From NCBI GenBank assembly GCA_965218585.1, contig CBDCLE010000017.1, positions 71,470 to 135,469 on the forward strand: DNA of 64,000 nucleotides, read 5' to 3'. This document shows positions 1-58,708 of the stretch, piece by piece. The notes below the pieces were generated by a model. It was not told the DNA's origin. It did no database searches and was given only the letters and a program-made list of their open reading frames with translations. A program made the translations under genes and the position numbers. Source of the DNA: Terriglobia bacterium (GTDB lineage: Bacteria; Acidobacteriota; Terriglobia; 20CM-2-55-15). Within the stretch, counting starts at the first letter, position 1. Every line of letters begins with the position of its first letter.

Positions 1-61
1 TCAGAAAATATCCGTGTCCCAGGAGAATGTCGGTCACCGCGTCGCTCCTATCGAAGCTGGT

Positions 62-4565: not shown

Positions 4566-6347
4566 CTAGTCACCTTGAACCGTTGCGAGCTCCTGCTCCT
4601 TGTACTGCAACTGATAGAGTTTGAAATACAGTCCTCTCTGGGCGAGAAGTTCCTGATGGGAGCCGATCTCCCGGATCCGTCCCGTGTGCATGACGATAAT
4701 TTTGTCACACCGTTGGATCGTCGACAGCCGGTGCGCGATGATTATCGACGTCCGTCCACGCATCAGTCGTTCGATCGCCCTTCCGATCTGGCCTTCGGTC
4801 TCCGTATCCACGCTTGAGGTCGCCTCGTCCAAAATCAGGATCTCCGGATCGTGTGCGAGGGCACGAGCAAAAGCGAGGAGCTGTCGCTGTCCAACGGATA
4901 AGGTGGTCCCCCGCTCGTTGACGGGGTGTTCCAGGCCCTTTTCAAGTGAACGGATGAAAGGCCCCAGATTCACGTCTTCGGTTGCCTGTCGAATTTTTTC
5001 CGTTGATATGTCGGAACCGAGCCGAATGTTGGACTCCAGAGTTCCGGAAAACACGAATACATCCTGCAATACAACGGCAAACCGACGGCGCATGTCGTCC
5101 AGATCCATAGTTGAAATATCGACACTGTCGAGCAGGATGCGGCCCTTCTGGATATCGTAGAAACGCGTCAGAAGACTGGTCACGGTTGTCTTCCCCGCAC
5201 CCGTGTGGCCGACAATCGCAACGGACTCGCTTTGCCGGACACTGAACGAGAGATCTTTCAGTACCCAATCCTCGTCGTTGTAAGCAAACCAGACATCCTG
5301 AAATTCGATCTCTCCTCGAGCTTCGGCGATCGCGCTTGGTGTGGGAGGAGAAAGAACCGTCGGGGCGGTGTCGAGCAGTCTGAAGATCCGTTCGGAACTG
5401 GCCATGGCCGACTGCAGGATGTTGTATTTTTCACTGAGGTCCGCGATGGGACGAAAAAACCGCTGCGAATACTGAATGAAGGCGATCAGGGCTCCCAGGG
5501 TGAGAATACCGGTCAGGACCTGTCCCCCACCGTACCAGATGATCAGCGCAATCGCTGTCGCGCTCAGAAGTTCGACGATGGGATAGAAGATTGCGTAGGC
5601 CATGATGGAATCGAGGTTCGCCTGCAGGTGCTCACGGTTGATGAGGTCGAACCTCTCGGCGCTCTTGCGCTCACGGTTGTAGAGCTGAACCACGCTCATC
5701 CCCGTAATGTGTTCGTGGAGGAAGGCGTTGATTTTCGCGATCGCGATCCGGACACGGCGGTAACCGTCTCTCGCCTTCATCCGGAAAATTGCAGTGGTCA
5801 CGCCGATAAACGGGACGATTGCCAGGACGATCAGGCCCAGACGCCAGTCCAGAACCAGCAGCACGATCATGATGCCGGTCAGAGTAAATATGTCTCCAAA
5901 AACGGAGACGATACCGGCGGAGAACATTTCATTGAGAACATCGACGTCCGTCGTAACGCGCGTGATAAGGCGCCCGACAGGATTGCGATCGAAGAAGCTG
6001 TTCGAGAGGCTCTGGATGTGGTTGAAGATCTGGCGCCTCATATCGAACATGATTCGCTGTCCCGTACTCTGGAGCGTGTAGGTCTGAAGGAAACCAATGC
6101 CATACTTCACTACGAGCAGACCAAAGTAAGCCGAAGCAATCAGCGAGAGCCCACCCATGTTGCCTTGAAGGATGTAGCGATCCACGGCGATCATCGTCAG
6201 CCACGGAAAACTGATTTCAATCAGCGACTCCACCATGATGAGAAGAAACGCGAACAGCACTATCTTGCGGTACGGCAGAAGGTAGACCATCAGCCGCCGC
6301 ATGAGCCGGGAGTCGTATGCTTTGCCTAGTACTTCTTCTTCCTGCAT
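4566..6347 (-). CDS. ABC transporter permease/ATP-binding protein (type I exporter half-transporter, MsbA/LmrCD-like)
   Basis: Six-TM N-terminal domain, Walker A GHTGAGKTT, signature LSVGQRQLLAFARAL, Walker B ILILDEATSSVD. Confidence 0.9.
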   Translation of the reverse strand: MQEEEVLGKAYDSRLMRRLMVYLLPYRKIVLFAFLLIMVESLIEISFPWLTMIAVDRYILQGNMGGLSLIASAYFGLLVVKYGIGFLQTYTLQSTGQRIMFDMRRQIFNHIQSLSNSFFDRNPVGRLITRVTTDVDVLNEMFSAGIVSVFGDIFTLTGIMIVLLVLDWRLGLIVLAIVPFIGVTTAIFRMKARDGYRRVRIAIAKINAFLHEHITGMSVVQLYNRERKSAERFDLINREHLQANLDSIMAYAIFYPIVELLSATAIALIIWYGGGQVLTGILTLGALIAFIQYSQRFFRPIADLSEKYNILQSAMASSERIFRLLDTAPTVLSPPTPSAIAEARGEIEFQDVWFAYNDEDWVLKDLSFSVRQSESVAIVGHTGAGKTTVTSLLTRFYDIQKGRILLDSVDISTMDLDDMRRRFAVVLQDVFVFSGTLESNIRLGSDISTEKIRQATEDVNLGPFIRSLEKGLEHPVNERGTTLSVGQRQLLAFARALAHDPEILILDEATSSVDTETEGQIGRAIERLMRGRTSIIIAHRLSTIQRCDKIIVMHTGRIREIGSHQELLAQRGLYFKLYQLQYKEQELATVQGD

Positions 6348-6415: not shown

Positions 6416-8173
6416 TCATTCCGCTACGTCCAGTTCGTCTTCCAGAAGCTGGCGTTGATGGAGTTCGGCGTACTGCCCTTCAAGCGCCAGCAGTTGATCA
6501 TGAGTACCCCTCTCGACGATCTCCCCGCCGTCGAGAACTACGATTTCGTCCGCACCCTTGACGGTCGATACGCGATGGCTGATCAGGAGTGAAGTCCGGT
6601 CCTGCATCACGGTTCTCAGTTCGTCGAGGATCTGCTCTTCGGTATACGTGTCTACGCTCGACAACGCGTCGTCGAGAATGAGAATCCTGGGGTCTCGAAC
6701 CACGGCCCGGGATATTGCCGTCCGCTGCTTCTGCCCACCAGACAAGGTGATGCCACGTTCACCAACCAAAGTCTCAAAGCGTTTAGGAAACTGGTCTATA
6801 TCCTCGTATATGTTAGATATATGAGCTGCCTTCTCAACCTTAGCCTCAGATACTTCATCCACTCCAAAGGCGATGTTTTCAAAGATTGTCTCGCCGAACA
6901 GGAACGTGTCCTGGGGAATGAAACCGATCGAACGCCGGAGACGCTCGAGGGGAAACCGCTCTATAGGAATCCCGTCGACAAAGATCGACTTTTCGGGCGC
7001 GTTGTACAGGCGCGGGATAAGTTGCGCCAGAGTGGATTTTCCTGCACCTGTCGAACCCACAATCGCCAGCGTCTTGCCCTGGGGAATGGTCAGGGAAACA
7101 TCCCGCAGCACGGGCGTGCCGTTGTAAGCAAAGCTGAGGTTGCGCAGTTCAATTTCTCCCCGGATCTCGTTGTCCACACAGTCGGGCGAGTCTGCGATCT
7201 CGGGAACCGCATCGAGTATGTAGTTCAACCGCCTCATCGACGCCCGACCGCGTTCCAACAGGTTGACCACCCAACCCAACGCGATCATTGGAAAGGCCAG
7301 CATGCCCAGGTATACCGTGAACGCGACGAAGTCTCCCAGGGTGATAATTCCAGAGACGACCTGCCTTCCCCCAAACCAGATGACGGCGACCGTCGCAAAT
7401 CCAATCGTGAACTGCATCGTGGGGTAGAACAGACTGGTCACACGGATCAAATCCATGTTCTTGTCCTGCAAGCTATGGTTCAGCCCGTCGAACTCGGCTT
7501 TCTCGTGCTCCTCCTGCACGAAGACCTTTACGACACGGATCCCGGACAAGCTTTCCTGTACGCGGGCACTGAGGCTGGCCAGGCGCTGCTGCGATTCCTC
7601 GCTCAGGACATGGATGCGCGAACCGAATTGGCGCACACCGTAAGAAATCAGCGGCAGAGGAAGCAACGCCACGAGCGTCAACCTCCAGTCGATACTCAAC
7701 ATCAATCCAATGGCAATCGTCGTGGTGAGGACCGTATTCGCCGTGTACATGATTCCGGGACCGAGCAACATACGCACATTACTCAAATCGTTCGTCGCCC
7801 GCGACATGAGGTCCCCGGTAAAACTTTTCTGGAAGAACGAGAGTTCAAGCTTCTCCATGTGCGCGAACACGTCGCTCCGCAGGTGGTACTCGATCCGGCG
7901 GGAGACCCCGATCATGAGCCACCTCATGAGAAACCGGGAGATACCCTGGAAGACGGTCAGTCCGACGATCAGTCCGGCATACAAGAGGAGCCTGTCGCGG
8001 GTAATCTCCTCGCTGAGGCTGTCGATGCCATACCGGATGACCCAGGGGTTAGCCAGCGAGAAGGCCGACGTGGCGACGACACAGACCAACCCCGCCATCA
8101 TCCTGGACTTATATCTTTTGAGATAAACGATTAACCGGGATAAAGTACTGGTTTGGGACCTTTCGAGGGGCAT
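6416..8173 (-). CDS. ABC transporter permease/ATP-binding protein, partner half-transporter of a heterodimeric exporter
   Basis: Walker A GSTGAGKST, signature LSGGQKQRTAISRAV, Walker B ILILDDALSSVD. It lies 69 nt upstream of the second half-transporter gene on the same strand. Confidence 0.9.
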   Translation of the reverse strand: MPLERSQTSTLSRLIVYLKRYKSRMMAGLVCVVATSAFSLANPWVIRYGIDSLSEEITRDRLLLYAGLIVGLTVFQGISRFLMRWLMIGVSRRIEYHLRSDVFAHMEKLELSFFQKSFTGDLMSRATNDLSNVRMLLGPGIMYTANTVLTTTIAIGLMLSIDWRLTLVALLPLPLISYGVRQFGSRIHVLSEESQQRLASLSARVQESLSGIRVVKVFVQEEHEKAEFDGLNHSLQDKNMDLIRVTSLFYPTMQFTIGFATVAVIWFGGRQVVSGIITLGDFVAFTVYLGMLAFPMIALGWVVNLLERGRASMRRLNYILDAVPEIADSPDCVDNEIRGEIELRNLSFAYNGTPVLRDVSLTIPQGKTLAIVGSTGAGKSTLAQLIPRLYNAPEKSIFVDGIPIERFPLERLRRSIGFIPQDTFLFGETIFENIAFGVDEVSEAKVEKAAHISNIYEDIDQFPKRFETLVGERGITLSGGQKQRTAISRAVVRDPRILILDDALSSVDTYTEEQILDELRTVMQDRTSLLISHRVSTVKGADEIVVLDGGEIVERGTHDQLLALEGQYAELHQRQLLEDELDVAE

Positions 8174-8228
8174 CGGCCTACCATTCTACATTTATTGGAG
8201 TGGGCTTTTAAACCGGGCCCCCGGAAGT

Positions 8229-8256
8229 GGAGTCTAAAGTTATTGTAGGCGTTCCC
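8229..8256 (-). promoter_or_regulatory. candidate ECF-type promoter (GGAAC-N16-GACTC) upstream of the ABC/SDR/rSAM cluster
   Basis: The minus strand reads GGGAAC gcctacaataacttta GACTCC about 55 nt upstream of the ABC start at 8173. This is only a loose match to ECF -35/-10 consensus. Confidence 0.25.
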
Positions 8257-8376
8257 GATGGACGCCTGGAGACAGAACCACTGTCATACCAATAAGTTCG
8301 GGAATGTCGAGCAAGAAGACCATGGATCAGACCGCGATTACTGCCATGCCGGTTTCGACGACGGAAAGGGATGAGG

Positions 8377-9741
8377 GAGGTCGTTCCAATCGGTGTGTAA
8401 AAAGAGAAGGCGGTGTACGCTTTCGGTGAATCCGAAACCCTAAGCAATCCCGGCAGCAACCGGGAGAAAGGTACACCACCCATGAAGAAGAAGAACATAC
8501 CGGCATCAGTGGCGTCAACGAACGCGTATGAAGGTTTGGAGGACTGGGCGCGATCCCGGGTCCAAGTCTGGCTACAGGAGCTGCTCGAGGACGAAGTCAC
8601 TCAATTTCTGGGTCGGGAAAAGTCGGAGCGGAGTCCGAATCGACGAGGATACCGGAACGGTCACGGGAAGCCGCGACGCTTCGCAATGATGAACGGTACG
8701 ATGGAGGTTCGACGACCTCGGGTTCGAAACACCGCCGAGCGGTTCGAGAGTCAGATCCTGCCGTATTTTCGACGGAAATCGAAACAGCTGGGCGAGCTAC
8801 TTCCCGATCTCTACCTCCACGGTCTGGCCACAGGGGACTTCGAGCAGGCCATGCGCGGACTGCTTGGCGCTGGCGCTCCGTTGTCGCGAGCATCGATCCA
8901 ACGACTGAAATCGACCTGGCAGTTGGAGTATGACGAGTGGGTCCAGCAGGACCTGTCCGGCCTCGAGGTCGTGTACCAGTGGGCAGACAGCTTGTACGTG
9001 AAAGCGGGGATCGCGAAAGAGCGAGCGGCATTGCGGGTGATCATCGGAGCCTTGTCAGACGGGCGCAAAGTGGTGTTGGCCTGTGAGAGCGGGCAGCGGG
9101 AAAGCAAGGAGTCCTGGAGCCGCATTCTGCGCAATCTCCAGAGACGGGGCCTGAAGCTGGGACGGCTGACTGTCGCGGACGGTCACCTGGGCATCTGGTC
9201 CGCGCTGGCCGAGCAACAGCCCCAGGGCCAGGAACAACGCTGCTGGAACCACAAGTCGATCAACGTGGTCGATCATCTGCCGAAGACCGAGCAGCCCGCG
9301 GCCAGACAGCTGCTCCATGGGATGGCCTTCGCGAACTCCCGCGCGGCCTGCGAACGAAAGCGGGATCAGTTCGTCCGCCGATATGAGAAGAACTATCCCA
9401 AAGCGGGTGAGACGCTGTTGCGGGACTGGGACCGGATGATTACTTTCTATGAGTTCCCGAAACAACACTGGGTGCATCTGAGAACAACCAACATCGTCGA
9501 ATCGCCTTTCGACATGGTTCGCCTCCGTACCAACGCCGCTCGCCGATTCAAGCGTGTCGAGAATGCAACGGCAATGATCTGGAAGCTACTACGTGTCGCT
9601 GAGAAGGCTTGGCGACACTTAAAAGGATCCGAACTCTTACAAGAGGTCTATGATGGTCAGCAATTCGCTGACGGCATCAGAGTCGTGATGAAATCGAAGG
9701 CCGCCGCCTGATGACTTTTACACACCTTTTGTAATGACCTC
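8377..9741 (+). mobile_element. IS256-family insertion sequence, complete copy (1365 bp) with imperfect terminal IRs and an 8-bp target-site duplication GGATGAGG
   Basis: IRL GAGGTCGTTCCAATCGGTGTGTAAAAAG versus the reverse complement of IRR GAGGTCATTACAAAAGGTGTGTAAAAG (about 22/26 identical). GGATGAGG occurs at 8369-8376 and again at 9742-9749. The element encodes an IS256/mutator-type transposase. Confidence 0.85.
8482..9711 (+). CDS. IS256-family transposase
   Basis: Typical C-terminal IS256 motifs (DRMITFYEFPKQHWVHLRTTNIVESPF). It is about 99% identical to the transposase at 56901..58130. The MKKK start at 8482 is preferred to the upstream extension at 8413. Confidence 0.9.
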   Translation: MKKKNIPASVASTNAYEGLEDWARSRVQVWLQELLEDEVTQFLGREKSERSPNRRGYRNGHGKPRRFAMMNGTMEVRRPRVRNTAERFESQILPYFRRKSKQLGELLPDLYLHGLATGDFEQAMRGLLGAGAPLSRASIQRLKSTWQLEYDEWVQQDLSGLEVVYQWADSLYVKAGIAKERAALRVIIGALSDGRKVVLACESGQRESKESWSRILRNLQRRGLKLGRLTVADGHLGIWSALAEQQPQGQEQRCWNHKSINVVDHLPKTEQPAARQLLHGMAFANSRAACERKRDQFVRRYEKNYPKAGETLLRDWDRMITFYEFPKQHWVHLRTTNIVESPFDMVRLRTNAARRFKRVENATAMIWKLLRVAEKAWRHLKGSELLQEVYDGQQFADGIRVVMKSKAAA

Positions 9742-10284
9742 GGATGAGGACAGAGACCTTGTATCCCGATACCTGTCTGGAGATATGATCGCCTTTGACG
9801 AGTTGATGACCCGCCACGAAAGGCAGATCTACAGACTCTGCTTCCGGTTTGTGAAGAACCCGGAAGACGCCATGGATCTGACTCAGGAAGTCTTCATCAA
9901 GGCCTTTGAGAAACTCACTGCTTTCCGGGGGATGCCCGGTTCAAAACATGGTTGTATCGCGTTGCGGTCAATCATTGCCTGAACCACGTAAAGAAAAACT
10001 CCCGGGAGTTTGTCGAAGTCAACGAAAGTATTGGAAGCGTCGGTCCGTCTTCTCATAACAGACTGCTTGAGAGAGAACGGCGCGATATCGTAAAGCAGCT
10101 CATGGGGAACCTCCCTCCGAAGCAGAAGGCGATTCTCGAGCTGCGAATGAACGACAATCTGAGCTACGAAGAGATTGCAGGCATACTGGGACGATCGGTT
10201 TCGACGGTCAAATCCAGCGTCTTCTTCGCGCTCACCAAGCTCAAGAAGATGGTCGCCCAACAGGCGGCTGCAGGCCAAATGTGA
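9734..10284 (+). pseudogene. ECF sigma factor (sigma-70 family), disrupted
   Basis: Region 2 (DLTQEVFIKAFEKLTAFRG / FKTWLYRVAVNHCLNH) and region 4 (LSYEEIAGILGRSVSTVKSSVFFALTKLK) are recognisable. The native start ATG 8346 plus about 10 codons is separated from the body by the IS256 insertion. In addition, a -1 frame break in a G5 run near 9927-9931 splits regions 2.1/2.2 into the ORFs 9734..9982 and 9952..10284. Confidence 0.8.
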
Positions 10285-10333
10285 TCCAGGCGGTATGAAC
10301 CAAATAGCAGGGCTATAACACTGGCAGATAACA

Positions 10334-10972
10334 ATGCTTAGCTACTTCAAAGGATTCAGGCATCTGAGGGCCAAAGAGTTCATGACCCTTCTCGATGGTC
10401 TCGACCTGGGGGGGGATCGCCGAACCCACCTCCGAGAGTGTGCCAACTGCAGAACGACTCTGGCTTCGATCGCAGAATTGGGGCAGGACATATCGGAATC
10501 CGAGGGCGTGGACGCTGATACCACCCACGCGGCGGTCGCGAATGCGGACTGGGTTCGGCTGCGTTCTTCAGTCAGGGACCGACTGCTTGCACGTGCCGTC
10601 AAGCGTGATTCGGTTCTGCAGCGATGGACAGGGTGGACCGGCCTGCCGACCCCGGTCTGGAGCCTCGCTCTCCTGGCCCTTGTTACCGGGATGGCCGTTG
10701 GTGGATTTTGGCAATATCAGACAGTTCAGCTGACGGATGAAATAACGGAGATTTCGTCGAACGAAGGCGTAAACTTGTCTTCGACCGAGTCCGGCTCCGA
10801 GTTCGGGCTGTTTCCCGGGGACGCCGAAATCATCGAGGCGGAAGCTCTGGCCTGGTCCCAGACCGAGATCTTCACTTCCCTGAACGAACTGGAATCGGGT
10901 GAAGAAGATGTGCTCCGGGAGCTGATTTCCCTGGCTTTTGCCGAAGCTTCGATCTTTGACGAGTCGAGGTAA
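10334..10972 (+). CDS. zinc-binding anti-sigma factor (ZAS-type, single TM)
   Basis: HLRECANCR (HxxxCxxC) motif at the N-terminus, a TM helix VWSLALLALVTGMAVGGFW, and an acidic periplasmic tail. It lies immediately downstream of the ECF sigma gene. Confidence 0.75.
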   Translation: MLSYFKGFRHLRAKEFMTLLDGLDLGGDRRTHLRECANCRTTLASIAELGQDISESEGVDADTTHAAVANADWVRLRSSVRDRLLARAVKRDSVLQRWTGWTGLPTPVWSLALLALVTGMAVGGFWQYQTVQLTDEITEISSNEGVNLSSTESGSEFGLFPGDAEIIEAEALAWSQTEIFTSLNELESGEEDVLRELISLAFAEASIFDESR

Positions 10973-28972: not shown

Positions 28973-31081
28973 TTGACGATGACGACCCTGTTTACACTAC
29001 TGATAGCGATTACGCTCCCAACCGGTTTGATCGAGCGCGCGCTCGATTTCTTTGAGCGGGGAGACTATCGGACCTCGGCCGAACTGCTGGATGAGGCCGC
29101 TGCGGTTGATCCCGAAGAGTTTCAACTAAACAACCTGCACTACCTGCGCGGACGGATCGCTCTGGAAGAAGAAGATTGGTCGCGGGCGGAATCTGAGTTC
29201 GCACAAGTATCCGAGAGTAGCGTTCTCGGTGACCTTGCCTTGTGGCACCGCGGGCGCGTTGCACTTCGAGACAGTCGTAGTGGGGACACACTTCGGTTTC
29301 TGACCCTGCTGGGACCAGGTTTCCCCGACGCGCTCCGTCTCGAATTGGCCGAGGGCGCCCCAGAGGATGTCGCCCTGACCATTTACCGGTCGGTGTCGGG
29401 CCGAGAGTCGCAGTGGAAGCAGGCGTCGATCCTGGACGACGAAGACGCGATGTGGCAGCTCCTGAACCTCAGCCGCGGCGACGAATTCGCCCTTACAGGC
29501 AGCCAGAAGACTGGATGGAAGACCCGCGACTCCGGCCGAAAGCCTCCGGTTGGCGAAAACATTCCACACTCACCGCATCTTCGATCGGGCCGAAGCCATC
29601 TATTCGACGCTGCTCGAAGATCGCTCCGCGATCGGTGCCCAGGCCCATTACGAGTTGGGCCGGACTTACTTTCAAAGACTACGGTATGACGATGCCATCG
29701 CCGTATATCGGGCCACGACCGAAAGATTTCCCGACACCGACTGGGAACGCGAGGCGGATGAGCAGATCCCGCCGAATTACTGGCGCAGCCTGGACTACCC
29801 CAGGGCCATCGCGGCCTATGAGGCACTGATCGACAATACGACGATGACCCGGACCTCTATCAATCGGCGCTCCGCGACATGATCGACATCCGTCGCGCGA
29901 TGGGCGAGGTGGACCAAGCGCAGCGTTTGATCGACCAGGCACTGGCTGCGAGCCCCGATAGGAGGGACCGGGCCGTCCTCACCTTCACCCGGGCCAAGAT
30001 CCATCATGGCGAAGGACAGTACGCCGAAGCGCTCGGATCGTTTAGCCAGCTTCGCGGCGTGCGAACAGGCCGGGCAGCTAACGGAACGGATCAGACCGAA
30101 GTGCGGTTTTTTGAAGCGGCCAGCCTCGAAGCGCTAGGGCGCACCGACGAAGCACATGCGATCTGGACCGAGCTTTCCGAAGAGCCCTTCGGTTACTACG
30201 GCCTTCGATCTTTCGAGAAACTCGGCGACAGCTCAGCTCCTTCCGCCACACTGCAACAGATGGTCTCGAGGGCCAGGGAGACTCCTGCGGCCTCTCTATG
30301 CGGCGAGGCCTCCAACCTGGATTTCATCGATGTGGTTCGGCAGCGACGACTCTCAAGGACACGTGGTTTTCTCACACCGGGATCTGTAGAAACAGACCTG
30401 GTGGGAGAGCTGGTCTTTCTGCGTCAATGGGACGAAGCGTTCTACTGGGCAAACCGTGTCGCCTCCAGATGGAGAGACCAGGCACTGGCCGATTTGGCAT
30501 ATCTCGCTTCAGATTTCAGGCGCTCGATGCTTTACGCGGACCGTTTGAGACCGGTCGCCGACATAGGGTTGTTCTCACTGGACGCGGAGTATTCGCCTGA
30601 GACACGGGTTCTCATGGACATGCTCTACCCTACGGCGTTCCGGGATATCGTCTGTCGAGAAGCCCAAGCCGCGGCCGTCAATCCGCTCTGGTTACACGCC
30701 ATCATGTGGCAGGAGAGCCGATACAACCCCGAGGCACTCTCCAGCGCGTCGGCCCGAGGCCTGATGCAGTTCATCCCGGAAACAGCGACTCGCATCGCCA
30801 ACGAAGTTGGGCTGACGGACTTCATGCTGGACGACCTGTACCGGTCCGAGATCAGCATTCGCCTCGGCGCGCGTTACTGGGCCGAACTGATTGAAGTGTT
30901 CGGAAGTCCCGAACTGGCACTGGCCGCATACAACGGCGGTGAAAGAAACGTCGAGCGTTGGCGGGCAAAATCAGAGCTGGAAGATACGGAAAGCTTCGTC
31001 TCCGACATCGGTTTCACCCAAACGAAGGCCTACGTTCGCGAAGTCTTCGGACTCTTCGCGAAATATGCCCATCTTCTTTAG
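28973..31081 (+). CDS. soluble lytic murein transglycosylase (Slt-like: N-terminal superhelical TPR-like domain + C-terminal SLT domain), reading frame broken twice
   Basis: SLT catalytic block AIMWQESRYNPEALSSASARGLMQFIP...AAYNGG lies in the frame 29879..31081. The N-terminal helical domain is spread over the frames 28973.., 29550.. and 29879.., with single-base frame changes near 29500 and near 29840. Confidence 0.75.
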
Positions 31082-31105
31082 CGGATCTCGGCTCCGGACA
31101 TTTTC

Positions 31106-31881
31106 ATGAACAAGCCATTCAACTGGAAGCTTTTCTTCATCGTCTGGGGTGCGGCCCTGGTTGGGGCGGTGGCGATCATACCGTTTGCCCTAACAATTCA
31201 GGCCCCTCTCCTGGAGGCCACTGATCTCCCACTGCCCCTATGGCAGCTCATCGTTCTTGGATTGGTTCAAAGTATGGTGTTGGTGAGCCTGGCTGCCGGC
31301 ATAGGCCTCTTGCTTGCCGGCAAGGTCGGTCTTGGGCTTCCGCTGGTGGAAGCCTGGCTACGGAAAGAACCTCTCCAGAAACAGGCGGTACTAGGCCTGC
31401 CGTAATCGGCGGCGTTGCCGCTGCATTAGTCATCGTCGGCCTCGAACTGGCCCTCTTCGCTCCCCTGCTCGGAGGGAGCGGCATCACGTTCCCCGAAAAC
31501 GCACAGCCTGCCGTTTGGCAGGGCCTTCTGGCGGCGTTTTATGGCGGAATCACCGAAGAAGTTCTGGTTCGCCTCTTCCTGATGACCTTACTGGTCTGGA
31601 TCGGCTCTCTGCTGACACGGTCCCAGCACGGCTCCGTAGTCCTGTGGATTGCAATCGTTCTGGCTGCAGTCGCATTCGGACTGGGTCACCTTCCGGCAAC
31701 TGCAGCGTTGGGAATACCGCTGAACGGGCTGGTCATCACCCGAGCGATCGTGCTCAACGGAGTGGGAGGATTGTTGTTTGGTTGGTTGTATGCCAGACGC
31801 GGACTCGAAAGCGCCGTGGTCGCGCACTACTCGGCCGACATCATGCTCCTCGTTGTATTGCCTCTGACAGGACTCTTGTAG
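31106..31881 (+). CDS. CPBP family intramembrane metalloprotease (CAAX protease/Abi-like), frame broken once near 31390
   Basis: Motifs EExxxR (ITEEVLVR), FxxxH (FGLGH) and HYSAD, and multiple TM helices. Two overlapping ORFs, 31106..31405 and 31240..31881. Confidence 0.7.
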
Positions 31882-39125: not shown

Positions 39126-41506
39126 CTAATCCTGTCCCAACTCCTTTGGCTGTGCGTCCTTCACGAATCGTTCGAACCACAACATCATTTCGTACAACGT
39201 GTGTTCGACCGATTCACGCGCCGCGTACCCATGGGATTCCAACGGCAGGGTGACGAGCCTCGCGGTCGCACCGTGCCCAGCAAGGGCATGGTACATCCGG
39301 TCGGACTGGACGGGGAAGGTCCCCGCGTTGTTATCCTGCTCCCCGTGTGTCAGTAGGATCGGTTCGTTCACCTTGTCGGCGTGCATAAAAGGTGATACGG
39401 CAAAGTAAATTTCGGGTGCTTCCCAGAACGTGCGCTGTTCGCTCTGGAAACCAAAAGGAGTCAGCGAGCGGTTGTAAGCACCACTGCGTGCGATACCTGC
39501 ACGAAACAGATCGGAATGCGCGAGCAGATTTGCCGTCATGAAAGCGCCGTAGCTGTGCCCGGCGACTCCGACACGGTTCCGGTCGGTCACATCCAGCTCA
39601 ACTGCCCTGTCGATTGCCGCTTCGGCGCTCGTGACGATCTGTTCCACGAAGGTATCGTTCATCGTCATCGGATCACCAATGACCGGCATCGTGGCATTGT
39701 CAAGCAATGCATACCCGTTCAGCACAAAGAATAGCTGGGAGGTCCCCCGGATTGTCGTAAACCGCTCGGTCGACCCGCTGACCTGACCCGCTGTTCCCGC
39801 GTCGTTGTACTCCCTGGGGTAAGCCGAGACCACGGTCGGCAGGCGTGTTCCTTCCTCGTAATCGGGAGGCAGGTATAGCGTAAACGAGAGATCCACTCCA
39901 TCCTCCCTCTGATACTTGATCAACCGCTTCTTGATCTGTCGCAGCTCGGGCGTCGGGTCGGTAAAGGCGGTCAACGCCATCGTTCCCCCACCTTCGCCGA
40001 ACGTCCGAATCAGGTAGTTCGGCGGTTCGGTGGGTGTTTCCCGTCGTGTTATCCAGCGCGTTCCCCCGCCATCGGCAGGGCTGACGATGATTTCGTAGGT
40101 TCCCTTTGCGGCTTGGAACAGCCGCTCGGGTTCGAGCGTCAGAATGTTGAGACGATCCAGAAACGGATAGTCACCTTCGGGAGAGGAACCGTCGCCTTCG
40201 AGGAAGATGTAATCGCCCCTCGTCAGGACGGCCTGTTGGCCGTTCTCGAGCATCCGGGACATGGGATTTCCAGGATGGTTGTAACGATCCTGGGCGCTCA
40301 GGTCCCATACGAGGCGGGGCTCGGAGCCATCGGCCACCAGAAACGTCCGATTCCAGCGCCGGTCTCTGTCGTACTCAGTAACCAACGCCGCGTCCCCGGT
40401 GTCAAGCCACTCGATTCCGCGGTACCGATGTTCCGTGCGTATCAACTCACCTGGTGTGTCGCCGAATGGTGCGGCGAGAGTGAGAATGCTATCGCGGTGA
40501 TCGGCTTCGACATTCGGGTCTCCGCCGTCGAGTGCTTCGACCCAGATGAGCGTGGCGGGCGCGGTCGGTACCCAGACGTAGCTTCGCCGCTCCGTGGTTA
40601 CACCACCGATCGGAATTTTGTCCTGCAGCGGCGTGCGTGCGAGCGTGTGTTCGACGCGCGCGCTTCGGTCCCAGACCTCGACACTCTGTGGAAAAGACCG
40701 ATGCGTATAAAGATAGGAGTACGGCTTCAGGACCCGCGACACCAAGAAGTGGTTCCCGTCGGGCGAAATCCTAAGCGTCCGAAACAACGCTGGCTCACCG
40801 AAGTCACGGACACGGCCGCTTTCAAAGTCGACGAATGCGAGTTGGGCCGTGGCGTAGTAGTCGAACAACTCTGCGTCATGGGCGTCCCCAAGAAGATCCT
40901 GATACGTACGGACGGGTCCGGACGGCCCGGAGGTTTCCTGAACGTTCGGACCAGTCGGTACCCTTGCTTCTTCGGGCCCAGCGCCGCGTTCAGACGGCAC
41001 ACGCTGGATCAGTAGTGTGCTGCTGTCGGGCATCCACTGAACCTCGGTTCCGTACGCGGCGTTAATCGCCACTCCGTCGACTTTCCGAACCGTGCCACTT
41101 CGATCGCCCACCCACAACTCAATCCCGTCAGGGAGCGTGTTGGTGAACGCAAACCGATCGCCGTCTCGACCCCGTCGGGTATCGTCGTCAAAGTGTAGCC
41201 TGTGTAATAGCGTGGGCGGCTGGGCCCATTGGTAGCGGGATCGATCCGCAGCCCCGCAAGGCGCAGCATGGGCTGCGCATGGTCCCCAATCGAGGCATAA
41301 CCCGGCGAATCTGCCAGAATCATGAGATCCTGCTGAGGGCTGATGCTGACCTGCGGCGTCTCGGGTGCGTTCAGCACATCCATGATCGCTTGAGGTGGTT
41401 TCCGATACGGCTCCTGAGCCTCGAGCGTCACCGAAAGGGCGGCGACAAACAGGACGGCAAGGAGAATTCCCGCCCCGCGAACGAGCGTCTGTCGATTGAT
41501 GGTCAT
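39126..41506 (-). CDS. S9 family serine peptidase (prolyl oligopeptidase/acylaminoacyl-peptidase-like) with N-terminal beta-propeller, frame broken once near 41100
   Basis: GHSYGAFMT (GxSxG nucleophile) and a C-terminal His/Asp region. The signal peptide plus first ~120 aa are in ORF 41009..41506, and the remainder in 39126..41117. Confidence 0.75.
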
Positions 41507-54215: not shown

Positions 54216-56067
54216 TCAATGCGAAGGCGCAGTTTCGATTTTTACGGCCGGTCCGACATGTTCGGGCTCCCGGATCTGATCGACCAGGTCGCGTGTAGCG
54301 GAACTCGGAGGCGGGAAAAACCCTGTAAGCCCAAGGGTGACGGCAAAGTTCAGCATCATGCCGACCGACCCGATCCCCTGCGGGTCGATCCCGTTCGTGA
54401 ACAATCCGAAGGTCCAGCGGTCCATTCCAAAGAAGACAGTCGCGATGATGTAAAACGCGGTGAAGGAAATCCCTGCGATCATGCCCGCAACTGCCGGAAC
54501 GGTTCCAACCCGTTTGCTGAAGATACCCAGAACGATCGCCGGGAAAAAAACTGGCTGCCGCCAGACCAAAGGCAAAAGCGACGACCTGGCTGACAAACCC
54601 GGGTGGATAGATGCCGAAGATTCCCGCGATAACGACGGCAACACCGATGACTCCACGTCCAACCCTCAGGCGTTGGGCTTCGCTGGCTTCGGGCCGCAGG
54701 ATCCGAAAATAGAGGTCGTGAGCGACACTGGAGGAGATCACCAGCAGAAGACCGCTCGCCGTCGAAAGTGCAGCCGCGAGACCTCCAGCCGCAACAAGCG
54801 CAATGATCCAGTTCGCCAGCTCGGCCATTTCAGGCGTTGCAAGAACGATGATATCCCTGTCGGGCCCGGAGAGTCCGGCGTCCCTCAAAGCGATTCTTGC
54901 ATCCAGACCGGCCGTGCCTCCGGTGTCGAGCCACTGTTGATGCGAAGCTCTGAGCGAAGCCAGTTCCGCTGTGGCCAACGTTCCGTTACGGAAGACCTCG
55001 TTATCCTCGCCCGCAGCATAGAGAACCTGCCCGTCGCCGTTATCGAGCCATAGAATCAGACCGGTCCGTTCCCAGTTCTCGAACCACTCGGGTAGCTCTT
55101 CAGCCCTCTGCCCATTCAGGCTGTCGATCATGAAGTAACGCGCAAATGCGGCGGTTGCCGGGGCCGTCAGGTACAGCATCGAAATAAAGAAAAGCGCCCA
55201 AAACGCACTCCACCGCGCAGCCTTGACCGACTTGACCGTGTAAAAACGGACGATCACATGAGGCAGGCCTGCGGTGCCCACCATCAGGGCCAGAGCAACC
55301 AGAAAGACGTTGACCTTGTCCCAACCTCCGACGAACGTATCCGTGTAGGCTGCAAAACCCAGATCCGTATGTATCTGATTCAGTCGTTCCAACAGGTAGA
55401 CGCTGGTTCCATCATCCGCGCCGATCAGTTCGCCTCCAAGGCCAACCTGGGGCAGCAGATCTCCGGTCAGTCGGATACTAATTGCGATTGCGGGTATGAG
55501 AAAGGCCGTGATCAGGACCCAGTATTGGGCCACCTGCGTCCAGGTTATTCCCTTCATGCCGCCGAGCGTCGCGTAGACAAAAACGATCGCCATGCCGATG
55601 ACGACACCCACGTTGATATCCACTTCCAGAAAACGGCTGAAGACCACGCCCACGCCGCGCATCTGTCCGGCGACATAGGTGAACGAGATAAAGATGGCAC
55701 AGACCACTGCGGTCATTCGTGCCACGTTCGATTCGTAGCGATCACCGATGAAATCCGGAACCGTGTAGTGTCCGAACTTTCTCAGGTATGGGGCGAGCAG
55801 GAGGGCCAACAGGACAAACCCTCCGGTCCAGCCCATGAGATAGATCCCTCCCGCATATCCCATGGTCGAGATCAGGCCCGCCATCGAAATGTACGACGCG
55901 GCGCTCATCCAGTCCGCTGCGGTGGCCATTCCGTTCGCACCGGCAGGCACTCCCTGTCCGGCGACGTAAAAACCCCTGGTGTCGGTGACACAGCTCAACC
56001 AGGCGATCGTCAGATAGAGACCAAAGGTGAGGCCGACGAAGAGGTAGGTCCAGCCCTGTACGCTCAT
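54216..56067 (-). CDS. sodium:solute symporter family transporter (cation/acetate ActP-like), frame broken in an A7 run near 54541-54555
   Basis: SSF TM topology and motifs. The N-terminal ~500 aa are in frame 54028..56325 from Met 56067, and the C-terminal 148 aa are in ORF 54216..54662. Repairing one base in the A7/T7 run gives ...GLAAASFFPAIVLGIFSKRVGTVPA... Confidence 0.8.
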
Positions 56068-56381
56068 CGGGCATCTCCACGGCGGCTCTCGTCGATCTCC
56101 CGGTGGTGTGCAGCATCCAGCCGATTCATCAAGAGGCAGTAAACGAGGATGAGGAGAACAAAGGCGATAATGCTGCCCTGTTGCGCAAACCAGAATCCGA
56201 GTGGATATCCGGTTCCGGGAAGCCTGTAGGTGTTCAGCACGTCGGCGAAAAGGACGCCGGCCCCCAGTCCCGCCAACGCCCAACCGAAGAGAAGAGTGAC
56301 CATGATGCGCACGTTGCGCCGCCAATACGACTGGAGCAGTGTTCTGGTGTCGGGTTTCGCCTGTGGGGATTCAGCGTTCAT
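56064..56381 (-). CDS. DUF4212 small membrane protein (putative solute:sodium symporter small subunit)
   Basis: 105 aa, two TM helices, always found upstream of ActP-like symporters. Its stop overlaps the symporter start (ATGA). Confidence 0.7.
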   Translation of the reverse strand: MNAESPQAKPDTRTLLQSYWRRNVRIMVTLLFGWALAGLGAGVLFADVLNTYRLPGTGYPLGFWFAQQGSIIAFVLLILVYCLLMNRLDAAHHREIDESRRGDAR

Positions 56382-56504
56382 GGGGATCAGAAAAGCGCTG
56401 CGATTCTATCGGAGGGGATTAGCAAGGTCAACGGACACGTGAGACTCCGATTGCTTCCAACTTCTTAGTTCTACTATCATTTGCCAAGAAGGAGGCCGGG
56501 ATCG

Positions 56505-56870
56505 TTGACAGATCGAAAAACCCTCGAATCTCTCGACTTAGAAGAAATCTATGAGACAGCACCCGTGGGCTTGTGCGTCTTTGATACGGACGTTCGGTAC
56601 GTTCGCATCAACCGATACCTGGCAGCGATCAACGGCAAACCGGCTTCCGAACACGTTGGTCGATCGATTGAGGAAATGGCGCCCGAGGTGGCACCCACGG
56701 TGACACCGATGATCAAGAAGGTAATCGACACGGGTGAGCCGGTCTTCAATTGGGAAGTCATCAAACGAACGAACACGGGCGATTCTGAAACAGCTCAAGT
56801 TTTCCTTTGCACTTACCACCCACTCAGGACAGTCGACGGCGAGATAGTTGGCATTTCGTCTGTTGTGCAG
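56505..56870 (+). pseudogene. PAS-domain signalling protein, 3'-truncated by IS256 copy 2
   Basis: PAS fold (APVGLCVFDTDVRYVRINRYLAAINGKPASEHVGRS...). A strong RBS AAGGAGG lies 9 nt before TTG 56505. The ORF runs into the IS end at 56871 and terminates inside the IS. Confidence 0.7.
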
Positions 56871-58147
56871 GAGGTCATTACAAAAGGTGTGTAAAAGTCA
56901 TCAGGCGGCGGCCTTCGATTTCATCACGACTCTGATGCCGTCAGCGAATTGCTGGCCATCATAGACCTCTTGTAAGAGTTCGGATCCTTTTAAGTGTCGC
57001 CAAGCCTTCTCAGCGACACGTAGTAGCTTCCAGATCATTGCCGTTGCATTCTCGACACGCTTGAATCGGCGAGCGGCGTTGGTGCGGAGACGAACCATGT
57101 CGAAGGGCGATTCGACGATGTTGGTCGTTCTCAGATGCACCCAGTGTTGTTTCGGGAACTCATAGAAAGTAATCATCCGGTCCCAGTCCCGCAACAGCGT
57201 CTCACCCGCTTTGGGATAGTTCTTCTCATATCGGCGGACGAACTGATCCCGCTTTCGTTCGCAGGCCGCGCGGGAGTTCGCGAAGGCCATCCCATGAAGC
57301 AGCTGTCTGGCCGCGGGCTGCTCGGTCTTCGGCAGATGATCGACCACGTTGATCGACTTGTGGTTCCAGCAGCGTTGTTCCTGGCCCTGGGGCTGTTGCT
57401 CGGCCAGCGCGGACCAGATGCCCAGGTGACCGTCCGCGACAGTCAGCCGTCCCAGCTTCAGGCCCCGTCTCTGGAGATTGCGCAGAATGCGGCTCCAGGA
57501 CTCCTTGCTTTCCCGCTGCCCGCTCTCACAGGCCAACAGCACTTTGCGCCCGTCTGACAAGGCTCCGATGATCACCAGCAATGCCGCTCGCTCTTTCGCG
57601 ATCCCCGCTTTCACGTACAAGCCGTCTGCCCACTGGTACACGACCTCGAGGCCGGACAGGTCCTGCTGGACCCACTCGTCATACTCCAACTGCCAGGTCG
57701 ATTTCAGTCGTTGGATCGATGCTCGCGACAACGGAGCGCCAGCGCCAAGCAGTCCGCGCATGGCCTGCTCGAAGTCCCCTGTGGCCAGACCGTGGAGGTA
57801 GAGATCGGGAAGTAGCTCGCCCAGCTGTTTCGATTTCCGTCGAAAATACGGCAGGATCTGACTCTCGAACCGCTCGGCGGTGTTTCGAACCCGAGGTCGT
57901 CGAACCTCCATCGTACCGTTCATCATTGCGAAGCGTCGCGGCTTCCCGTGACCGTTCCGGTATCCTCGTCGATTCGGACTCCGCTCCAACTTTTCCCGAC
58001 CCAGAAATTGAGTGACTTCGTCCTCGAGCAGCTCCTGTAGCCAGACTTGGACCCGGGATCGCGCCCAGTCCTCCAAACCTTCATACGCGTTCGTTGACGC
58101 CACTGATGCCGGTATGTCCTTCTTCTTCATGGGTGGTGTACCTTTCT
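56871..58147 (-). mobile_element. IS256-family element, second copy (inverted relative to copy 1), missing about 88 bp of its left end including IRL
   Basis: Right end GAGGTCATTACAAAAGGTGTGTAAAAG is identical to copy 1. Identity to copy 1 stops 20 nt upstream of the transposase ATG (at 58147). No target duplication can be assessed. Confidence 0.8.
56901..58130 (-). CDS. IS256-family transposase (copy 2, ~99% aa identity to 8482..9711)
   Basis: Same protein as copy 1, with about 5 substitutions (e.g. EKSERS>EKLERS, ADSLYVK>ADGLYVK). Confidence 0.9.
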   Translation of the reverse strand: MKKKDIPASVASTNAYEGLEDWARSRVQVWLQELLEDEVTQFLGREKLERSPNRRGYRNGHGKPRRFAMMNGTMEVRRPRVRNTAERFESQILPYFRRKSKQLGELLPDLYLHGLATGDFEQAMRGLLGAGAPLSRASIQRLKSTWQLEYDEWVQQDLSGLEVVYQWADGLYVKAGIAKERAALLVIIGALSDGRKVLLACESGQRESKESWSRILRNLQRRGLKLGRLTVADGHLGIWSALAEQQPQGQEQRCWNHKSINVVDHLPKTEQPAARQLLHGMAFANSRAACERKRDQFVRRYEKNYPKAGETLLRDWDRMITFYEFPKQHWVHLRTTNIVESPFDMVRLRTNAARRFKRVENATAMIWKLLRVAEKAWRHLKGSELLQEVYDGQQFADGIRVVMKSKAAA

Positions 58148-58708
58148 TGCCCGCAACCAATCGATAACGAAAGGATCCCCGGACCCGGGCGGCAAGATGT
58201 CGCTGGTGCTGTCAATCCTGCTGTTTCCGGCAAAGAACATCAGCTTGTTGGGCTGAGTGCTGGTTGGCAAAGGCGCAAACCACTGGTCACAAACGGCGAA
58301 CTCGTTTGCCAGAAACGTTGTGATGGGCACGGCGCCCGGCCGTTGGAATCCCATCACTTCGGGTTCGGTCGGGTCAGGGATCTCGAAGCCTCTCTCTTGG
58401 GCATACTCGAAGTACGAACGGGCAAAGCCGTTCATACTGTGACCGTTGCCGCTTTTCGCAAGCTGGACGGCGATTCTCTCCCGTGCGTGTGGCGCATCGC
58501 CCGGCAACCACTTGTCTCCTGCTTCGAAGGGAAAGAACGACTTGCTGCCAAACCGATTCTCGTAGTCGGAGCGCTCAAGCGGGCGATGCAATCCGTTGAC
58601 GTCCCTGCCGAGGTCGTAGCTGAGGTGTCCCAGCATGTGGTCGAAGGAGCGGTCTTCGAACATCAGATAGACGATCGTGTCAACGAGTCTGGGGTCTGTC
58701 ATGAGCAC
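58148..58708 (-). pseudogene. phosphoesterase family protein (PlcC/AcpA-type phospholipase C/acid phosphatase) N-terminal fragment, 3'-truncated at the IS copy 2 boundary
   Basis: N-terminal motif TIVYLMFEDRSFDHMLGHL is typical of Pfam phosphoesterase (PF04185). Only about 185 aa remain before the IS sequence, whereas full-length members are 500-700 aa. Confidence 0.65.

Follow-up and report, generated by a model that had tools for sequence, protein, structure and literature searches.

The 64,000-nucleotide stretch of DNA analysed here, referred to as the window (positions 71,470 to 135,469 of contig CBDCLE010000017.1, assembly GCA_965218585.1), comes from a Terriglobia bacterium of the Acidobacteriota, and many of its genes are interrupted by changes of reading frame. 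An initial annotation had listed ten such frame breaks, had described each as curable by one base added or removed, and had advised that they be treated as possible assembly indels, with pseudogenes accepted only at loci also hit by insertion sequences (IS). In this study, each of the ten was compared with intact homologues and then with other public assemblies of the same lineage. We conclude, with a probability of roughly 0.7, that the window belongs to a lineage with recent gene loss and many IS, onto which a few assembly consensus errors have been added. The majority of the disrupted genes are found in the same state in strains that were assembled separately, and these are probably true pseudogenes. 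This reading is carried by the sharing of lesions across assemblies, by the existence of intact orthologues, and by a difference between the spectrum of shared indels and that of indels private to one assembly. Nine of the ten listed sites do show a discontinuity, at the stated position or close to it, the exception being a 4Fe-4S locus that consists of overlapping genes and is arranged alike in a sister species.

Exact protein matches place the genes of the window on two contigs, one of 269,345 bp, with NCBI and ENA as sources and with the window's own alleles, and one from a second assembly. The entire window is spanned, at ~99.9% identity, by this second contig, ctg830538_4x_l of ENA assembly ERZ25067264 (136 kb; hereafter the ENA strain). 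Because the two differ by 31 single-nucleotide polymorphisms (SNPs; 25 transitions; 12 synonymous, 13 non-synonymous and 6 intergenic) and by structural variants (a ~9.7 kb segment and a ~260 nt segment), the ENA contig is, judged by its sequence, a separate natural strain and no copy of the window's assembly. A third assembly, ERZ25072670, provides a 4.1 kb contig (ctg122286_2x_l) that spans window positions 6488-10569, a relative at 96-97% identity (ERZ26167216, ctg367202_1.86x_l) spans the left end of the window, and three contigs, among them one of 4.0 Mb, belong to the sister species, whose nucleotide identity is 92-94%. The nearest named relative is a metagenome-assembled genome (MAG) of the Solibacteraceae, and homologues of the radical-SAM (rSAM) gene discussed below carry the label Terriglobia. 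Scans of GTDB species genomes and of JGI metagenomes with a fragment of the lytic transglycosylase gene Slt each returned one distant relative, at 57% identity, and no same-species short-read assembly. All that is known of the window's lineage are ENA/NCBI metagenome contigs with coverage tags in their names (1.86x, 2x, 4x), presumably metaMDBG output, which such names resemble, and these names point to a long-read origin for the window's assembly as well. The low-coverage, long-read metagenome context proposed by the initial annotation thus holds, since the lineage is known from contigs tagged 1.86x-4x that contain many private, gene-breaking one-base insertions. By our own tally, from open reading frames (ORFs) and from gene calls on the related contigs, the window contains ~55 genes, with a pseudogene fraction of ~15%.

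At seven sites the lesion is identical in the window and the ENA strain, namely in the genes for an extracytoplasmic function (ECF) sigma factor, Slt (two sites), a CPBP protease, an S9 peptidase, an aspzincin-like peptidase and an rSAM protein, and in all six genes the frame is disrupted relative to intact orthologues or profiles. Five of these sites are single-base changes of the kind that the initial annotation had described. The Slt-type lytic transglycosylase gene (28973-31081, + strand), which encodes TPR repeats and an SLT domain, carries two of them, a T gained at 29493 (cta to ctta) and a G lost between 29836 and 29837, both placed by alignment with the sister species, whose intact Slt protein has 700 aa. 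A tblastn search with a 699-aa Solibacteraceae orthologue recovered residues 3-172 in frame +2, residues 173-288 in frame +3 and residues 287-698 in frame +2 again. The two shifts are opposite in sign and lie 343 nt apart, so that the original frame is regained downstream; the product is still truncated by a stop at 29687-29689, inside the shifted stretch, and the C-terminal ORF is equipped with an ATG of its own, at 29879. The gene for a CPBP/Rce1-like intramembrane protease (31106-31881, + strand) carries a one-base deletion (C3 to C2 at 31399-31401; one C lost at 31399 in the DNA alignment), at a junction through which intact 258-aa orthologues run as GLPVIGG, and its 99-aa truncated product was matched exactly on two contigs. 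Over the 15 kb that could be aligned with the sister species (~14 genes), the two Slt changes and the CPBP change are the sole coding one-base indels, and the sister species keeps both genes intact.

The ECF sigma factor gene (9734-10284, + strand) has a one-base deletion in a run of G (G5 at 9927-9931). Unrepaired, it matches Pfam Sigma70_r2 at positions 1-42 (41 bits) in one frame and has region 4 in the other, and with one G added the Sigma70_r2 match reaches positions 1-70 of 71 at 72.7 bits. Its 82-aa truncated product is present on three contigs, two of which, from different ENA assemblies, were read and both carry G5; the run is identical in the window, ERZ25067264 and ERZ25072670. A copy of an IS256-family element ends 23 nt upstream of this gene and may have disrupted its promoter region as well. 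The fourth gene, for an aspzincin (M35-like) metallopeptidase (47377-47999, + strand), has lost a C at 47659 (cgccga to cgcga), with the junction at RRRLNRAH|RLSDK; the repaired protein is matched over its full length (100%) by intact homologues of 207-208 aa that are 64-65% identical to it, and in the ENA strain the gene is likewise split, into 101 and 102 aa. Searches of NCBIfam and Pfam with the N-terminal fragments of the S9, aspzincin and CPBP genes gave no matches. Relative to the sister species, the ratio of non-synonymous to synonymous substitution rates (dN/dS) is 0.186 for the repaired Slt gene and 0.083 for CPBP, within the 0.07-0.34 of neighbouring genes. Since dN/dS is not raised, the shared Slt and CPBP lesions, if real, must be very recent.

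Two further shared lesions are larger than the single base that had been claimed for them. The S9 family peptidase gene (39126-41506, - strand) has an out-of-frame internal deletion of ~45-50 nt at 41153-41167, beside a repeated GACGG. Frameshift-aware alignment with homologues of ~820 aa puts the loss at 14-17 conserved residues (..PPGAK.S...WSP.G..) together with a change of frame, and the ENA strain does not differ from the window at this deletion. The rSAM gene is a 3' remnant (62-772, - strand), encoding 236 codons of a B12-binding radical-SAM gene of ~491 aa, that ends at a deletion junction at 777/778. On the related contig L015, positions 15-1128 correspond to window positions 1890-777 and positions 4818-5596 to window positions 777-1, and the 3.69 kb between them are absent from the window. 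Full-length homologues (such as P0151, 492 aa) align from residue 256 only, sequence upstream of the stump (776-1120) scores no better than shuffled sequence in frameshift-aware alignment, and the junction region is identical in the ENA strain. Repair of the rSAM gene by a single base was considered and rejected, given a marginal gain in Pfam score (24.5 bits with the repair against 21.8 bits, both under the cut-off) and upstream sequence that is unrelated by tblastn, by shuffled controls and by comparison with L015. That contig carries several rSAM genes in tandem, and on the ENA contig a 198-aa gene with a B12-binding domain only lies downstream of the stump (window 1-44, contig L013 1-44) and may be another fragment of a B12-rSAM gene cluster.

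A second class of breaks occurs in the window only. The gene for a sodium/solute symporter (SSF; VC_2705 family; 54216-56069, - strand) has one extra base in a run of A (A7 at 54544-54550), which is A6 in the ENA strain, where the gene is intact and encodes 616 aa; the C-terminal fragment in the window matches TIGR03648 at positions 447-547 of 547. A break that the initial annotation had missed is a T gained (T3 at 60502-60504), 17 codons past the ATG of an M10/astacin-like peptidase gene (60452-61559, + strand), for which the ENA strain reads T2 at this site and has an ORF of 368 aa. The same peptidase (60555-61559, + strand) also matches NCBIfam NF050131, "beta-glucuronidase AbsR1", at 346 bits against a cut-off of 650, and this name looks odd for a protein that carries a zinc-peptidase motif. 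The EEP-family gene (63380-64000, + strand) is a remnant that has lost its N-terminus beside an IS and that carries both a TAG stop and an added G. The frame shift reported for it exists, at a run of G (G4 at 63649-63652) and not at the A4 at 63636 where it had been placed; three-frame translations show G3 in the ENA strain (L007), and the TAG stop at 63525-63527 is common to both strains. A further window-only insertion, C4 at 60177, is intergenic.

These four window-only changes resemble indels that are private to other thinly covered contigs. Compared with the window, ten one-base indels are private to the 4x contig, nine of them insertions, and the ones that were checked interrupt genes whose frames the window keeps open (e.g. 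UvrB, HGPRT, GAF-SpoIIE and S9 genes). On the 2x contig, 4 kb of sequence contain five insertions of this private kind. Across the 4x, 2x and window contigs, private insertions outnumber deletions by 18 to 1; all 18 lengthen a run of bases by one, and where coding insertions were checked, the ORFs that they interrupt are whole in the other assembly. The shared single-base lesions have a different spectrum, with one insertion and four deletions (Fisher p = 0.0023). The density of private indels declines with rising coverage tag, from ~1.2 per kb at 2x to 0.16 per kb at 4x, and is 0.06 per kb in the window, and the sister-species assemblies have similar sporadic private indels. The window-only run extensions (SSF A7, EEP G4, M10 T3 and intergenic C4) are therefore most simply explained as assembly errors. 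Only two of the listed sites, described as "several" in the initial annotation, lie in runs of at least five bases, and of the 34 homopolymers of at least 6 nt in the window, one is tied to an identified break and 33 are not.

The IS content of the window, together with the shared lesions, fits a lineage that is losing genes. Transposases of about 400 aa that match Pfam PF00872, present in several near-identical copies, assign the elements to the IS256 family (Transposase_mut). Copy 1 lies at 8413-9711 (+ strand; PF00872 on the called gene) and copy 2 at 56901-58160 (- strand), and the DNA of these two copies, at 8465-9741 and 56871-58147, is 99.1-99.3% identical. A second type of IS256-family transposase (62033-63325, - strand; PF00872) lies just upstream of the EEP remnant. 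Copy 2 abuts a truncated phosphoesterase gene (58127-58708, - strand), of which profile positions 1-143 of 356 are left. On the other side of this copy, an ORF of 129-137 aa with a PAS domain only (56481-56894, + strand) ends 7 nt before the element and may be the remnant of an IS-cut sensor gene.

Larger differences separate the window from the ENA strain. At the junction 47011/47012, ~9.7 kb that are present in the ENA strain are absent from the window, and the loss truncates a T4-deiodinase-like gene. The flanks have a terminal ATT in common, a sign that microhomology may have mediated the deletion. In the ENA strain the segment (L005 1-9068) carries a DDE_5 transposase, a truncated IS256 copy, a Pkinase-PD40 gene and a tannase-like gene. 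At 2523-2534, a complex indel leaves 12 nt in the window where the ENA strain has ~272 nt (L003 1930-2201), and shortens a secreted protein to 366 aa, compared with 508 aa in the ENA strain.

The remaining listed break, at the 4Fe-4S locus (41872-43360, + strand), is on sequence grounds an ordinary overlapping gene pair rather than a frameshift. A Fer4-domain protein is encoded at 41872-42723 and a 221-aa protein, with a GTG start, at 42695-43360; the GTG sits 29 nt within the upstream Fer4 ORF and is preceded by a purine-rich stretch. Reading the two ORFs as one split gene was rejected, as they are arranged alike in the sister species, where the junction shows neither an indel nor a G5 run. 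Homologues of the 221-aa ORF number 3932, and the best 120 all stand alone, at 201-225 aa and mostly 219-225 aa. The family is thus large and is tightly conserved, with homologues typically of 223-224 aa at 66-88% identity; the protein had no Pfam or NCBIfam match. The pair resembles translationally coupled overlapping genes in that the overlap is kept in the sister species, and it differs from the other listed sites in having no lesion, a G5 run having led to the frameshift call. Near the 3' end of the 221-aa gene, the 4.0 Mb sister contig lacks one T (T2 to T1; L012 ~11360, window 43295), which alters the conserved, Cys-containing C-terminus of the protein. Even in so long a contig, the missing T may be an error, or it may be genuine.

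If the thin coverage of these assemblies explained essentially every frame break, the genes would be intact in the organism, and there are reasons to consider this. Contigs of the lineage are tagged 1.86x to 4x and hold many private, gene-breaking one-base indels, the SSF, EEP and M10 breaks are window-only and in homopolymers, and dN/dS of Slt and CPBP is not raised. However, a second strain-level assembly repeats seven of the lesions without any difference, and a third repeats one of them. We take such sharing as real mutation because errors that strike a consensus at random could not hit one and the same base in assemblies of different strains. The shared spectrum, with its deletions (~50 nt and 3.7 kb among them), is unlike one of +1-insertion errors (p = 0.002) and includes multi-base deletions and a nonsense codon, which argues further that the lesions are real. 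Most of the shared sites lie in runs of 1-3 bases, and the other ~12 genes in the 15 kb sister comparison are without a frame-breaking indel. We consider it very unlikely that errors account for essentially all of the breaks. The assembly-indel explanation of the initial annotation probably does apply to the SSF A7 and EEP G4 runs, both window-only extensions by one base, but is not supported for the lesions of Slt (two), CPBP, ECF, S9, aspzincin and rSAM that the second strain shares. Its advice to trust only IS-hit loci was too conservative, because the shared lesions recur across assemblies, are mostly deletions and lie mostly outside long homopolymers. At the opposite extreme, everything could be real, including the window-only SSF, M10 and EEP insertions, with no assembly error in the window. 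The lineage demonstrably accumulates lesions, homopolymers are natural slippage hotspots, and breaks are not in excess at the 34 long runs. Yet all four window-only indels are +1 run extensions, as are 14 of the 15 indels private to the 2x and 4x contigs, and they lie clustered within the window's final 10 kb; the window and the 4x strain are also separated by 14 one-base indels and 31 SNPs, a ratio that seems too high for natural divergence, by general expectation only. An error-free window is therefore unlikely. Far less probable than either of these, and in our view almost negligible, is that the frameshifted genes still yield functional products by programmed ribosomal frameshifting, by transcriptional slippage or as split genes. 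Some slippage might, in theory, take place at the A7 and G5 runs, and the C-terminal Slt ORF has an ATG of its own, but close relatives encode single-frame proteins and the shifts are not conserved, most sites are without a slippery sequence (a slippery heptamer was sought at 29493, 29836, 31399 and 47659, and none was found), the S9 and rSAM genes have lost conserved sequence, and a C-terminal Slt fragment would be without the N-terminal leader.

Several points weigh against our own reading, in which real gene loss is overlaid by thin assembly noise. The independence of the assemblies is itself read from their differing ERZ accessions, SNPs and structural variants; the ECF lesion sits in a G5 run, which could conceivably attract a systematic error; dN/dS of Slt and CPBP, being no higher than that of neighbouring genes, gives no independent sign of relaxed selection; and the window-only insertions could be real, strain-specific mutations instead of errors. 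Under the reading that we nevertheless prefer, the inactivating mutations would have arisen before the strains of the population diverged. This early set would comprise the one-base indels of the ECF, Slt (two), CPBP and aspzincin genes, the ~50 nt deletion in the S9 gene, the 3.7 kb deletion that left the rSAM stump, the nonsense codon and IS-associated truncation of the EEP gene, and the IS-truncated phosphoesterase. Together with three IS256-family copies and kilobase-scale deletions, these lesions would represent ongoing gene loss in an IS-rich lineage, to which a few consensus errors, in the form of one-base, run-lengthening insertions in the window's contig only, would have been added during assembly.

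The findings thus suggest that insertion sequences are active in this Acidobacteriota lineage and that it has recently lost genes, and more tentatively, at somewhat less than even confidence, a Terriglobia population at an early stage of reductive evolution with expansion of the IS256 family. On that account at least 8 of the ~55 genes in 64 kb would have been recently inactivated, among them those for a cell-wall lytic transglycosylase and an ECF sigma factor as well as several for secreted peptidases, and kilobase-scale deletions would differ between co-existing strains. Early reductive evolution, if true, would point to a recent ecological shift or a population bottleneck. The significance of the analysis is chiefly a matter of annotation quality. 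A blanket label of low-coverage, long-read error would wrongly restore at least five probably dead genes, and a blanket label of pseudogene would wrongly kill two to three probably intact ones (SSF, M10 peptidase), over-count the lesions of the EEP gene and misannotate the normal 4Fe-4S gene pair. As a practical rule for MAGs from such data, indels common to strain-level assemblies can be trusted, and private +1 run extensions in low-coverage contigs should be distrusted.

Both components of this reading have counterparts in known systems. Low-coverage long-read assemblies, examined by IDEEL-type tests, are one of them, and the nanoMDBG paper reports a few indels per 100 kb on mock data and notes that truncated proteins are as a rule errors, with some genuine pseudogenes among them (PMC13087279). 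The private, ORF-truncating one-base run extensions at the SSF, EEP and M10 genes are of this type, and in our comparison such extensions become commoner as the coverage tag drops (from the window to 4x and then 2x). The listed breaks as a whole differ from such errors, in that the majority are common to several assemblies and are mostly deletions or larger lesions, most of them outside long runs. Gene loss accompanied by active IS is a well-known phenomenon, and recent genome erosion is exemplified by Shigella, Yersinia pestis, Mycobacterium ulcerans and Sodalis glossinidius. Over the 64 kb examined, which are a part of the genome, the window resembles them in its several near-identical IS copies, in the frameshifts, nonsense codon, IS-associated truncations and kilobase-scale deletions that stand among otherwise well-conserved genes, and in having a close sister species with intact orthologues and a dN/dS without long-term rise, which points to recent events.

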